From Acutalibacteraceae bacterium (GTDB lineage: Bacteria > Bacillota > Clostridia > Oscillospirales > Acutalibacteraceae), in assembly GCA_045536525.1 (NCBI GenBank), contig JAZSNT010000004.1:6910-70909 (forward strand): DNA of 64,000 nucleotides, given 5' to 3'. The position numbers and the translations under genes were made by a program. The notes below the pieces were generated by a model, which saw only the letters and a list, made by a program, of their open reading frames with translations, did no database searches and was not told where the DNA came from. Shown in pieces: positions 11,892 through 17,820 of this stretch (position 1 is the stretch's first letter; each line of letters starts with the position of its first letter).

Positions 11892-12235
11892 ATCGACGTC
11901 CCACTGAATTGTATACATTTTAAGTTCGTTCATCGTTTCAATAAGCACATTGTCATAATCACCATACGGTGGGCGCAAAAAGGTAGGTTTTACTCCTGTT
12001 ATCGCTTTAATTTTTTCATTGCAACTCTCTATTTCATCGGTCATTTGTGCCTTTGACAATTGTGGCATGTGAGGGTGCGTATTAGAGTGATTTTGTATCT
12101 GGTGTCCTGCATCGCTGAGCGCTTTTACCGACTCAGGATACTTGTCAACCCACGCACCAACAACGAAAAAAGTAGCCGGAACGTTGTACTCTTTAAGTAT
12201 TTGTATAAGCGTCTCAGTATCGTCATTACCCCACG
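11892..12235 (-). pseudogene. Polysaccharide deacetylase, fragment 2 of 3 (middle ~110 aa)
   Basis: Reads (S)WGNDDTETLIQILKEYNVPATFFVVGAWVDKYPESVKALSDAGHQIQNHSNTHPHMPQLSKAQ...LRPPYG...YTIQWDVD. It contains NodB motifs HSxxH and RPPYG. The frame is open beyond the tracked ORF 11832..12068. Confidence 0.85.
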
Positions 12236-12299
12236 ATAAAAGTAAAAAGGTACAAAATTAACCCACAACACCGATTTCCCTTGTGTTGTGGGTTTGCTT

Positions 12300-12584
12300 T
12301 TACTTGTTTCTTAATCTATCTACCAATGACTGAATATACTGTTTATCCTTTTCGGATAGTCCCGAAATATCTATTGTTTCGCTTTTTTCTATGCCGAGTA
12401 GTTTGTCTGTACTTATATGGAGTGCTTTAGATAGCTTGATAACAACTTCTAAGGACGGTGTTCTATCTCCCACCTCATAAAAACTGATAACGCTATTTTT
12501 TACGCCTATTAGACTTGCAAGTTCTTTTTGCGTTAATTTTCTTTCTTTGCGAAGCTGTCGCAATCTGTCGCCAAATTCTACCAT
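12300..12584 (-). CDS. XRE-family helix-turn-helix transcriptional regulator
   Basis: 94 aa with an N-terminal HTH_3 signature (LRQLRKERKLTQKELASLIGVKNSVISFYEVGDRTPS). Confidence 0.85.
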   Translation of the reverse strand: MVEFGDRLRQLRKERKLTQKELASLIGVKNSVISFYEVGDRTPSLEVVIKLSKALHISTDKLLGIEKSETIDISGLSEKDKQYIQSLVDRLRNK

Positions 12585-12658
12585 TTAGTACACCTCAATT
12601 CTACTAATATTTTAACCTCTTTTAATATACAATTGGTGGATTTTTAATGTATAAAATT

Positions 12659-12698
12659 CTACTAAGTAGTTGACTTTTGCACAACTTAGTAGTATAAT
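12659..12698 (+). promoter_or_regulatory. Divergent promoter with palindromic operator
   Basis: TTGACT (12670-12675), a 17-nt spacer, then TATAAT (12693-12698). The palindrome CTACTAAGTAG (12659-12669) abuts the -35 hexamer. The half-site CTTAGTAG (12685-12692) sits in the spacer and another half-site, CTACTAAT, lies at 12601. Confidence 0.6.
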
Positions 12699-12754
12699 GT
12701 TGAAAAGTGAACTTGTGTGTCGCTAAAAATAATTAAAAGGGGTTATGAATAATC

Positions 12755-13243
12755 ATGGCTAAAAAACAAAAACAAAAGGAAAAATTATTTGAAGAAGTGC
12801 AATTTCAAGACATTGAAAGAGCAAAAAGAGAAGTTAAATTTGCAAAAATAAACCAAATCAGAATTTTGATAGGTTTTGTTTTTTCTCTTATTGCTATCGT
12901 TTTCACTGCACTTGCAATTTGGGGAAATCCTGAAAAAACAAGTATGTTTGTAGGTATCGCCGTTTTTCTTGCAATTCCATCTTACATAATTGGTGGCGGT
13001 ATTTTCAAAGCATTAAAGGTCGCTTGGAAAATTACAAAAATCGGTTGGTTTTTAATTCCTGTATTCCCTGCTGATGTTCTTATTGCCCTTGCGTGCTTCT
13101 TCTTTGCAGTCATTGGTCTTTTGTTTGTACCTGTTATATTTGTTGGCATCAACTACGTGCAACATAAAAGGACTTTAGATGCCGCAACAAGCTATTTAGC
13201 ACAGTGCGGTGCGGTTGTAGAAACAGCTACTACCGAGGAATAA
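12755..13243 (+). CDS. Hypothetical membrane protein (about 4 TM segments), element-2 cargo
   Basis: 162 aa with a charged N-terminus (KKQKQKEK) followed by four hydrophobic stretches. An RBS AAAAGGGG precedes it. No family is recognised. Confidence 0.6.
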   Translation: MAKKQKQKEKLFEEVQFQDIERAKREVKFAKINQIRILIGFVFSLIAIVFTALAIWGNPEKTSMFVGIAVFLAIPSYIIGGGIFKALKVAWKITKIGWFLIPVFPADVLIALACFFFAVIGLLFVPVIFVGINYVQHKRTLDAATSYLAQCGAVVETATTEE

Positions 13244-13256
13244 ATATTATACAATT

Positions 13257-13286
13257 AAAAAGGCTATGCTTCGGCATAGCTTTTTT
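13257..13286 (+). terminator. Rho-independent terminator
   Basis: GCTATGC-ttcg-GCATAGC stem followed by TTTTTT. Confidence 0.7.
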
Positions 13287-15750: not shown

Positions 15751-15751
15751 T

Positions 15752-15880
15752 ATGAAAAAGGTTACCATTGAGTTCGAAGACGTTTTCGAACAAGGTAAAA
15801 GTTTCGGAGATTGCCTTAACGATCTCCTTGATACATACTACTCTGATGAGGGTGCGGAAGCACCCTCTATTTTTTTATAA
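15752..15880 (+). CDS. 42-aa acidic hypothetical protein upstream of the recombinase
   Basis: MKKVTIEFEDVFEQGKSFGDCLNDLLDTYYSDEGAEAPSIFL. An RBS-like GAAAGGCGG precedes it. The 3' end overlaps the terminator hairpin GAGGGTGC-ggaa-GCACCCTC plus a T-run (15848-15876). Confidence 0.3.
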   Translation: MKKVTIEFEDVFEQGKSFGDCLNDLLDTYYSDEGAEAPSIFL

Positions 15881-15897
15881 CTTTTTCAAACTAAAGG

Positions 15898-15926
15898 TTG
15901 ATTTTGTACCCTACTTTTGATATAAT
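15898..15926 (+). promoter_or_regulatory. Sigma-A type promoter of the element-2 recombinase
   Basis: TTGATT (15898-15903), a 17-nt spacer, then TATAAT (15921-15926). The spacer contains TTTGTACC, the same core as the element's terminal inverted repeats. Confidence 0.55.
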
Positions 15927-15963
15927 GCTAAAGAAGATACAAAACAATTTTAAGGAGTTCATT

Positions 15964-17613
15964 ATGGCTAACAAAAAGTTTTCTACCGCCCTATATATTA
16001 GGCTTTCAAAAGCAGATGAACGCAAGGGGGAAGCACATTTTTCCGAAAGTATCGAAAATCAAAAAATACTGTTGCACGATTTTTTGAACAATCGGCAGGA
16101 CGAATTTGATTTTTACAAGGAATATATTGATGACGGCGTTTCGGGTACGGACGATATTCAGCGACCAAAATTTATGGATATGATTAACGATATTAAGACA
16201 GGAAAAGTAAACTGTGTCATTGTTAAGGATTTATCCCGTTTTGCAAGAAACTATTTGCAGGCAGGCGAGTATTTACAAAATACTTTCCAAAAATACAATA
16301 CCCGATTTATCGCATTATTTGATAATGTTGATACTCTTCATACAAATGGTTATGACGTTTTAACTGTCTTTAAAAACCTTATGAACGAGGATTACTCGCG
16401 CCGATTATCTAATAATTTGATTTCAGGTTTTAGAGTAAGGTGTTTAAAAGGTCAATTTCTCGGTGCTTTTGCAAGTTATGGGTATAAGCGCGACCCCGAA
16501 AACAAAAATCACTTAATAATTGATGAAGAAGTACGCTCGGTAATCGAATTTATTTTCAATCAATTTTTAGACGGTGTCGGCAAAAATACCATAGCAAAAA
16601 GTCTTAATGATATGGGTGTTGTGTGTCCATCAGTCTATAAACAGCAACAAGGAACCAATTATAAAAACTATAAAAAATTAGAAACAACAAACAGTTGGAC
16701 GTATTCCACAGTTCAACGTATTTTGCAAAATCGCGTTTACTGTGGCGACTTGATACAGCACAAAACAAATCACAGCAGATTTAATAAAACAGGGAAAACA
16801 CAATATAATCCTGACGAGTGGATTATTGCCGAAGATTGCCACGAGCCAATTATAGACAAAGAGACATTTAACAAGGTGCAAGAACGGTTAAAAACCTCTA
16901 CAAGAGATATTGACTTCACACAAAATATATCTATTTTTGCAGGTCATATCAAATGTGCAGAGTGTGGCAGAGCTATGGCTAAAATTCAAACCAAGTACAA
17001 AGACAGGGTTAGCACAAGGTACGTTTGCCGTTCTTATAAATCAAATGGTGATAATAAAAAAATATGCACGTCTCACTCTATAAATGAGGACGTGCTATCG
17101 GAATATATATTAAATAGGCTTAATGAACAGTTAGGAAAATATAAGGACTTGGCAAAAGCCATAGCCGACACAAAAAACAAGCAGATAAAATCTAAATCGT
17201 CAAAAATAGAAATTCGCATTAAGGAACTTAAAAAATCGTTAGAAAAAGTTAATAACCAAATAGACGGCTATTATGATATGTTGGCAGAAATACGAAAAGA
17301 TACCGAGCAAAAAAGAGAATATGACAATATGCGTGATAGGTTGAATAAAAAAATCATAGAACGCGATAGTCTTGAGGACGAGCTTAAAACTTGCGAAGAA
17401 AAATTATCTGCTGACCCAAAACTTGCTTTAAATAATCCCGTAATTAAAAATTTGATAACGCATAAAAAAATTACCGAGCTTTCAAAGGAAGTTATGGACG
17501 CTTTCATATCTACAATTTTGATACACGAAGAATTTGAGACCAATCCCGAAACAAAGGAAGAAGACAGGAAACTAAAAATAAAGGTGGGCTTCAAATTCGA
17601 AGAATTAGAGTAA
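15964..17613 (+). CDS. Large serine recombinase of element 2
   Basis: The start was moved to MANKKFSTALYIRLSK behind the RBS AAGGAG. It has a resolvase domain, a recombinase domain, a zinc ribbon (CAECGR...CRSYKSNGDNKKICTSH) and a coiled-coil tail. The stop lies 8 nt before the right inverted repeat. Confidence 0.85.
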   Translation: MANKKFSTALYIRLSKADERKGEAHFSESIENQKILLHDFLNNRQDEFDFYKEYIDDGVSGTDDIQRPKFMDMINDIKTGKVNCVIVKDLSRFARNYLQAGEYLQNTFQKYNTRFIALFDNVDTLHTNGYDVLTVFKNLMNEDYSRRLSNNLISGFRVRCLKGQFLGAFASYGYKRDPENKNHLIIDEEVRSVIEFIFNQFLDGVGKNTIAKSLNDMGVVCPSVYKQQQGTNYKNYKKLETTNSWTYSTVQRILQNRVYCGDLIQHKTNHSRFNKTGKTQYNPDEWIIAEDCHEPIIDKETFNKVQERLKTSTRDIDFTQNISIFAGHIKCAECGRAMAKIQTKYKDRVSTRYVCRSYKSNGDNKKICTSHSINEDVLSEYILNRLNEQLGKYKDLAKAIADTKNKQIKSKSSKIEIRIKELKKSLEKVNNQIDGYYDMLAEIRKDTEQKREYDNMRDRLNKKIIERDSLEDELKTCEEKLSADPKLALNNPVIKNLITHKKITELSKEVMDAFISTILIHEEFETNPETKEEDRKLKIKVGFKFEELE

Positions 17614-17637
17614 TTAAATAATTTGTACCTTTTTACT

Positions 17638-17820
17638 ATTACCCCACGCGGCATCAAAGGAAATCGCCACCTGTTTTTTATCGGTTTCCACACAATAAAT
17701 AGGTAACAGTCGGTTATTATCCGCTGAAATATTCGCCGCCGACACAACTGCCAAAATACACGCCAACACAAAGCAAAAAGCCATCATCAAATGCTTTTTG
17801 GTAATAACAATATATTTCAT
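17638..17820 (-). pseudogene. Polysaccharide deacetylase, fragment 1 of 3 (N-terminal 61 aa)
   Basis: Signal/anchor MKYIVITKKHLMMAFCFVLACILAVVSA followed by LLPIYCVETDKKQVAISFDAAWGN, matching the PdaA/PdaB-type N-terminus and NodB motif 1. The frame then runs into element-2 DNA and stops. Confidence 0.85.

Follow-up and report, generated by a model that had tools for sequence, protein, structure and literature searches.

A small mobilizable serine-recombinase element in a PdaB-like deacetylase gene of an Acutalibacteraceae bacterium, with a possible sporulation-linked lifestyle

To our knowledge, the intervening elements described so far (skin, SPbeta, phi3T, vfbin, vrin, gin and yin) are either prophages or remnants of them, apart from one large island. 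Known combinations of a recombinase with a small recombination directionality factor are those of skinCd, the Clostridioides difficile element that interrupts sigK, which encodes the large serine recombinase (LSR) CD1231, a sigma-A product, and the factor CD1234, controlled by sigma-E and SpoIIID (PMC5025042); of the gin (gerE-intervening) element of Bacillus cereus, which encodes GirC and the factor GirX of 42 amino acids (aa) and whose horizontal spread is suspected by its authors (PMC5595907); and of SPbeta and phi3T, where a constitutive integrase is paired with a small sigma-E-controlled factor (PMC6957869). SPbeta, phi3T, skin and ICEBs1 have interchangeable recombination units, SprA/SprB among them (PMC6957869, PMC5499854), and experiments have demonstrated that such an exchange can work for SPbeta, skin and ICEBs1; when the authors of that work looked in databases, they found no conjugative elements in which units had been swapped (PMC6957869). 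As of a 2017 review, a directionality factor had been proposed for no serine-integrase mobilizable element (PMC5704250). Here we analyze a 64,000-nt stretch (hereafter, the window) of contig JAZSNT010000004.1 from the metagenome-assembled genome of an Acutalibacteraceae bacterium (GCA_045536525.1; 88% complete, 79 contigs). The subject is Element 2, a 5.4-kb insertion encoding an LSR and a MobV-family relaxase, which splits a gene for a PdaB-like NodB deacetylase; its coordinates are positions in the window. Element 2 might represent a relaxase-bearing mobilizable family with a skin-element lifestyle, a reading to which we assign a probability of about 0.4. This lifestyle would combine a self-repressing integrase, a 42-aa factor fired by sigma-E, cost-free residence in a spore-cortex gene, excision in the dying mother cell, relaxase-mediated spread between species and module swapping, with a second recombinase family acting at another codon of the same gene.

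The ends of Element 2 are marked by an 11-bp direct repeat, present at both junctions (12225-12235, attL core, and 17638-17648, attR core, both given on the plus strand), as an earlier note on this DNA had claimed. The 11-mer has no further copy on either strand of the window, and ~0.03 chance occurrences of a given 11-mer are expected per 128 kb. Just inside are perfect 16-nt terminal inverted repeats (12241-12256 and 17622-17637, plus strand), the left of which is predicted to be an outer recombinase-binding arm of attP. This left repeat is kept in all relatives that have a left end and the right one is conserved in 13 relatives. The gap between the direct and the inverted repeat is asymmetric, with 5 nt at the left end (12236-12240) as against 0 nt at the right end, and the recombinase stop codon (17611-17613) lies 8 nt from the right inverted repeat, so that the junction geometry of the earlier note stands in every detail. 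The reconstructed attP consists of 16-bp inverted arms around a 16-bp spacer. When Element 2 is removed in silico (5,413 bp), the excision is precise and the minus-strand NodB/PdaB-like reading frame is reopened, with the sequence FDAAWGNDD running across the join. The same junction architecture is found again in 13 independent contigs, which excludes chance.

The LSR is a protein of 549 aa (15964..17613, plus strand) that contains the Pfam domains Resolvase (PF00239, E=2e-17), Recombinase (PF07508, 4e-24) and Zn_ribbon_recom (PF13408, 8e-14). These three domains, together with the empty site in relatives, bear out the view that this is a serine-recombinase element bounded by repeats. The start codon is most likely the ATG at 15964, which is preceded by a good ribosome-binding site, rather than the TTG at 15898. 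The YIRLS motif with the catalytic serine (Ser15) is invariant in 18 homologues; the nearest relatives with solved structures, SprA of SPbeta and the N-terminal catalytic domain of TnpX, are both distant (E ~1e-21). The LSR belongs to a tight clade of ~35 protein clusters with 68-99% identity, and the next proteins fall below 45%. Given that Element 2 has its own integrase with attL and attR, an empty attB in relatives and its own relaxase (MobV family, 430 aa, 13426..14718, plus strand; Pfam Mob_Pre PF01076 at 42.4 bits, the cut-off being 25.5), it is very probably a site-specific integrative mobilizable element.

The interrupted gene is represented next to Element 2 by two fragments on the minus strand, namely a signal-peptide-like 5' fragment of 57 aa (17647..17820) and a middle fragment of 113 aa (11895..12233; Pfam Polysacc_deac_1), which is colinear with intact orthologues, provides the host half of attL and for which the top NCBIfam model is PdaB (TIGR02764, 116 bits, profile positions 16-128). 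The same gene is also split by another insertion, Element 1, in this genome. Once both elements are taken out, the gene lines up over its full length, start to stop, with the uninterrupted 253-aa genes of two genomes from the same genus. The Trp codon in the conserved FDAAWG motif of the PdaB-like gene serves as attB, and the empty site in two same-genus genomes is nearly identical to the reconstructed attB. Five genes for NodB-domain proteins are detected in the genome, among which the interrupted target alone is PdaA/PdaB-like. The fragments are all open across the occupied loci (14/14 for the 5' fragment, 8/8 for the middle one).

Upstream of the gene, a sigma-E-like promoter is predicted on the minus strand (17843..17872), with a SpoIIID-box-like heptamer (17858-17864) in the spacer. 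Among 13 occupied alleles, the sole invariant columns of this region are the ATA-type -35, the CATA-type -10 and the spacer heptamer, and two empty alleles show the same architecture. The heptamer, invariant in the window and 12 other loci, fits 6 of the 7 defined positions of the B. subtilis SpoIIID consensus. The host encodes Spo0A, SpoIVA, SpoIIID, SpoIIIAA and SpoIID. In B. subtilis, SpoIIID binds DNA upstream of ybaN (pdaB) (PMC517825) and pdaB is one of the sigma-E regulon genes and is required for efficient sporulation (PMC4703394); in C. difficile, three deacetylases are sigma-E-dependent and SpoIIID-repressed (PMC3789822).

Related loci, gathered by related-locus and DNA searches starting from the LSR clade, are highly uniform with respect to the insertion site. 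Thirteen close relatives (L002-L004, L083-L088, L090-L092 and L180; LSR 68-82% identical) carry the same insertion: in all these contigs, the 5' fragment of the deacetylase gene is located ~40 bp past the recombinase stop on the opposite strand, and the middle fragment, where the contig is long enough, 5.4-7.5 kb leftward. The earlier note had called for a check of whether homologues occupy the FD..WG codons of NodB genes, and they do: the same FDAAWG codons are used in 13 of the 14 informative close relatives, and the fourteenth (L089) is rearranged and still abuts the deacetylase gene. Four distant LSRs (L093, L095, L094 and L008; 35-37% identical) are inserted at the same Trp codon as well, in either orientation, which brings the same-codon insertions to 17/17, each in another assembly.

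The relatives also narrow down the crossover point, which the earlier note had placed near the middle of the 16-nt spacer. The length shared by attL and attR in eight elements is 11, 10, 9, 8, 6, 5, 5 and 4 bp, and the core common to the eight pairs is CCCA (12230-12233 in the attL of Element 2). The last two bases of this core coincide with the dinucleotide at the symmetry centre of attP and, on the gene strand, with the TG of the Trp codon; the predicted crossover is at this central CA (12232-12233 in attL, 17645-17646 in attR). The 11-bp identity of attB and attP proposed in the earlier note thus holds for Element 2 but not as a family trait, given that the other relatives share 4-10 bp; with identity varying down to CCCA, the 11 bp are a local coincidence between host and element.

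Several relatives show additional rearrangements at the right end. In L089 (8001-11620), a degenerate right end follows the recombinase, and a second intact right repeat, with a 3' remnant of a recombinase gene, meets the middle fragment of the deacetylase gene in reversed orientation; this arrangement is compatible with an inversion of the element interior between the identical terminal repeats. Two contigs contain a direct duplication of 257 nt (L090:9664-9919 and 10926-11182, 93% identical; L084:5469-5724 and 11288-11543, 83%) that takes in the right repeat with the attR core, as well as the 5' fragment of the gene with its promoter. The two copies in L090 are ~1 kb apart and flank two open reading frames (ORFs), one of them barstar-like; the duplication may have arisen by tandem accretion or may be a mini-element that lacks a recombinase of its own. 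In L009 (4990-5300), a gene for a MazF/PemK-like toxin directly follows the recombinase gene, so that this recombinase is not at the element end.

Element 1 represents a second LSR family in the same gene. Its recombinase is encoded on the minus strand at 10189-11766, and three other contigs have similar recombinases next to the middle gene fragment, at its 3' end (L004:149-1708, L092:967-2271 and L094:11160-12608, with 74%, 51% and 34% identity to the Element 1 protein, respectively). This family, then, repeatedly uses the DxxDW codons of the gene, and double occupancy is seen in four contigs, the window included. A sigma-E-like two-block motif (11814-11842, minus strand) lies ~48 nt upstream from where the recombinase of Element 1 starts and adjoins an extended -10 sigma-A-like promoter; its -10 block is kept in L004 and is not kept in L092.

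The distribution of the family points to horizontal transfer. There are same-genus genomes that lack Element 2, and a close LSR is found in 0 of 400 sampled genomes of the family. Identity of the LSR and identity of the target gene are uncorrelated (r=0.02), as exemplified by L003/L004 (98% and 57%, respectively) and L085/L092 (99% and 74%). Vertical co-divergence of element and host is ruled out by this lack of correlation and by the near-identical LSRs in divergent hosts, and the relatives have moved between hosts. The elements themselves are mosaic. The left 3.3 kb of Element 2 is 90-100% identical to L180, L091 and L084, and from ~15,550 rightward, across the promoter of the 42-aa ORF, this ORF, the LSR gene and the right end, the identity drops to ~70-80%, which implies exchange of the recombination module between cargo/mobilization modules. 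The MobV relaxase is 97% identical in L091, 90% in L084 and 89% in L180, and most relatives carry some gene of the MobV family, with the lineage varying among them.

The recombinase gene is preceded by a predicted sigma-A-type promoter (15898..15926, plus strand) with 10 of 12 consensus matches and a TG extension. The -35, the -10 and an octamer in the spacer (15903-15910) are invariant across 14 sequences. Because this octamer is the core of the terminal inverted repeats, it suggests that the recombinase may be autoregulated. Further upstream is an acidic ORF of 42 aa (15752..15880, plus strand) with a terminator of its own (15848-15867), a candidate recombination directionality factor. It adjoins the LSR gene in all relatives whose contig reaches that far, with 74-100% identity, and is under purifying selection (ratio of nonsynonymous to synonymous substitution rates, dN/dS, ~0.1-0.2). 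A sigma-E-like promoter is predicted for this ORF (15655..15683, plus strand); its -35 and -10 blocks are kept in 10 elements with diverged flanks, and its -10 octamer and spacing are identical to those of the host's own spoIIID promoter. Just 3' of the -10 is a hairpin (15692-15712) whose pairing is kept through differing sequences in several relatives. Furthermore, in L094, L095 and L009, which belong to distant lineages, the LSR gene comes directly after an ORF of 37-47 aa that has a CATA-type promoter; among these three, insertion at the deacetylase Trp codon is established for L094 and L095.

A plausible scheme can be drawn from these features. The recombinase would be made constitutively from its sigma-A-type promoter and may repress this promoter through the repeat-core octamer in the spacer. 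The conserved 42-aa protein encoded upstream would be the directionality factor; transcribed from a mother-cell (sigma-E-type) promoter, it would bring about attL x attR excision in the sporulating mother cell. Such excision would rebuild the deacetylase gene, and the forespore would retain the element, as in skin, SPbeta and gin. Spread from cell to cell would depend on the relaxase together with a conjugative element acting as helper. For the gene to be restored in the present genome, Element 1 would have to excise too. For the core of this scheme, sporulation-coupled excision with the 42-aa protein as the directionality factor, the odds appear to be about even.

Several observations weigh against it. 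Element 1 interrupts the gene as well, so that excision of Element 2 alone cannot restore it. The 42-aa protein matches no known directionality factor or family in Pfam, NCBIfam, PHROGs or ESM Atlas, and comparison with the small ORFs that the distant lineages carry at this site reveals no detectable homology (hhalign E=0.23). The -35 core of its promoter is ATT, not ATA, and the -10 also holds a sigma-A-like hexamer. A genome scan with the two-block sigma-E consensus yields 185 matches against ~205 in shuffled sequences, that is, no enrichment; a lone match is accordingly not significant, and the promoter argument rests on conservation rather than on the match itself. Compartment-specific expression of the target is taken over from other species. 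The intact same-genus orthologues score 221.8-223.3 bits against the PdaB model TIGR02764, under its cut-off of 237.4, although PdaB is still the top model, ~53-63 bits over YlxY and ~70-75 bits over PdaA. The elements look recently acquired, so that intact gene fragments are no proof of continuing selection. Finally, a degenerate attP-junction pattern detected no excised circular or tandem form in 185,579 public species genomes.

Other explanations have to be considered against this background. It is quite possible that Element 2 is a plain site-specific integrative mobilizable element that uses the DNA of a conserved catalytic motif as a landing pad and inactivates the gene, with excision serving transfer; the 42-aa protein may be a directionality factor in this case, too. 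The evidence on the element and its att sites suits such an explanation equally well, as do the recent, horizontal spread of the elements and the insignificance of the promoter match in a single sequence, and the double interruption may indicate that the deacetylase gene is dispensable in this genome. It is less easily reconciled with the promoter blocks of the 42-aa ORF, which are kept amid diverged flanks and copy the -10 and spacing of the host spoIIID promoter, or with the convergence of at least two LSR families and several deep lineages on one sporulation-type gene; nor would it predict that every 5' (14) and middle (8) fragment is still open and that no second PdaA/PdaB-like gene is detected in the genome. 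Alternatively, Element 2 could be a domesticated intervening element that has lost transfer, retains the relaxase as a relic and persists as a developmental switch alone. This is unlikely considering that the relaxase gene has an undamaged ORF with 89-97% identity between hosts, that near-identical recombination modules occur in divergent hosts and that the element is missing from same-genus genomes.

The combination of an LSR with a MobV relaxase in a 5-6-kb clostridial element, along with the placement of the TnpX N-terminal domain among the nearest solved relatives of the LSR, might suggest a mobilizable transposon of the Tn4451/Tn4453 type, with a TnpX-like recombinase, no directionality factor, low target specificity and a GA crossover. 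This interpretation is highly improbable and was dropped on the basis of the crossover dinucleotide, which is CA, the strict target (17/17 insertions at the same codon) and the gene order: Element 2 does not match the tnpX-tnpV-cat-tnpY-tnpZ-tnpW set and order, and there is no resistance gene in it; the earlier note had likewise set it apart from the Tn4451 layout. That the structure is a chance repeat or an artefact of metagenome assembly is barely conceivable, even considering the incomplete and fragmented state of the assembly, because the same junctions are found inside single contigs of 13 other assemblies, the ORF is restored exactly and the sites are empty in relatives. A mobilizable element with the sporulation-coupled excision scheme drawn above is the reading that we prefer.

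The remainder of Element 2 consists of cargo and mobilization functions. The gene set given in the earlier note (XRE, a protein with four transmembrane segments (4-TM), MobV, the 42-aa ORF and the LSR) is present in full, as is the non-coding stretch, which measures ~0.8 kb. The XRE-family helix-turn-helix regulator (94 aa; 12300..12584, minus strand; Pfam HTH_3, E=7e-19) is 100% identical in L180 and 99% in L092. It is divergent to the gene for the predicted 4-TM membrane protein (162 aa; 12755..13243, plus strand), which is followed by a terminator; in the control region between the two genes, a near-consensus sigma-70-type promoter is predicted (12670..12698, plus strand; 11 of 12 consensus matches). 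The 4-TM protein is 98-100% identical in L092 and L180 and belongs to no family in Pfam, NCBIfam or PHROGs, and in ESM Atlas it has none but hypothetical proteins as neighbours. An imperfect hairpin (13325..13359, plus strand) precedes the relaxase gene and is a candidate origin of transfer (oriT) as read from the sequence; the shared homology of the mobilization module with L084 and L091 begins at 13308-13313, just ahead of this hairpin. No other transfer genes, for either mating-pore or coupling proteins, are present within the 5.4 kb of Element 2. The same assembly encodes a VirD4/TraG-type coupling protein (contig C11:12188-15209, above the Pfam cut-off), with a sub-threshold VirB4-like match 2 kb away; this gene may be part of a helper conjugative element. 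The whole of Element 2 has no DNA match among PLSDB plasmids.

The relaxase gene ends in a terminator (14718-14757) and is followed by a hairpin-rich block without a credible ORF (14758..15560). Over ~14800-15500, this block is 97-100% identical in four elements (the window, L084, L091 and L180); the adjoining relaxase gene is less conserved, with stretches of 63-90% identity. Long perfect hairpins and two 18-nt direct repeats are present in the block, which folds better than shuffled sequences (z -2.3 on the plus and -4.3 on the minus strand). Candidate identities for it are a single-strand origin, a large RNA and a nested unit. No Rfam family is detected anywhere inside Element 2 even at a permissive threshold, and a 31-nt probe from the block has no match in viral contigs. 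An ORF of 152 aa (14886-15344) has no family match in Pfam or PHROGs and was rejected, the surrounding DNA being read as non-coding.

If the reading outlined at the outset is correct, Element 2 would be the first mobilizable, non-phage intervening element of a sporulation gene, and its 42-aa protein would be the first directionality factor attributed to a mobilizable element with a serine integrase. Were the proposed control real, it would reveal a route by which non-phage intervening elements spread, offer a very small and tractable pair of integrase and directionality factor with a 50-bp attP and a conserved attB, and extend developmental gene rearrangement to the abundant uncultured gut Oscillospirales. 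The family is also a natural case of recombination units exchanged between mobile elements and an example of two recombinase families in one target gene. At its center is a compact recombination unit (att sites, the candidate directionality-factor gene and the integrase gene) coupled to a MobV mobilization module.

Compared with the known systems, Element 2 resembles skinCd as an LSR element inside a mother-cell sporulation gene (here, a putative one), with exact excision restoring the ORF and with a sigma-A-type promoter for the recombinase and a sigma-E-type promoter for a small acidic protein, both predicted in the present case. It differs in that the target is a PdaB-like gene rather than sigK, that it is not prophage-like and that it carries, in addition, an oriT-like hairpin and a relaxase of the MobV family; the two LSRs are only distant relatives, the small ORFs have unrelated sequences and the behavior of Element 2 is deduced from sequence. 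The size differs as well, 5.4 kb as opposed to ~14.6 kb for skinCd. With gin, Element 2 shares the non-prophage nature, an LSR with a tiny, motif-less directionality factor (a candidate one here) and a short junction overlap, whereas gin has 28.6 kb, 31 genes, three recombinases and no relaxase; Element 2 is five times smaller and includes an obvious mobilization module. The layout of attL, directionality-factor gene, integrase gene and attR is that of the SPbeta, phi3T, skin and ICEBs1 units, as are the constitutive integrase and the sporulation-promoted factor (both predicted here) and the pairing of near-identical cargo with different recombination units. Those units, however, belong to prophages or to a conjugative element and have spsM, kamA or sigK as their targets, whereas the swapping seen here is among mobilizable elements. 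Tn4451 and Tn4453 are similar in size, clostridial hosts and the presence of an LSR and a MobV relaxase (TnpX and TnpZ; PMC5704250), but TnpX acts without a directionality factor, with a GA crossover and with low specificity, in contrast to the CA crossover, strict site and candidate factor of Element 2. The MOBV1 mobilizable elements of streptococci and Faecalibacterium are likewise small and mosaic and combine a serine integrase, MobV and a specific site (PMC5357655, PMC12084326), but neither a sporulation-gene target nor sporulation-type control has been described for them. Neither a pdaB-like target nor a relaxase-bearing intervening element was found in the literature searched. Element 2 and its relatives bring together a relaxase module, recombination modules that have been swapped, a conserved layout of two promoters and a target gene that can be doubly occupied.

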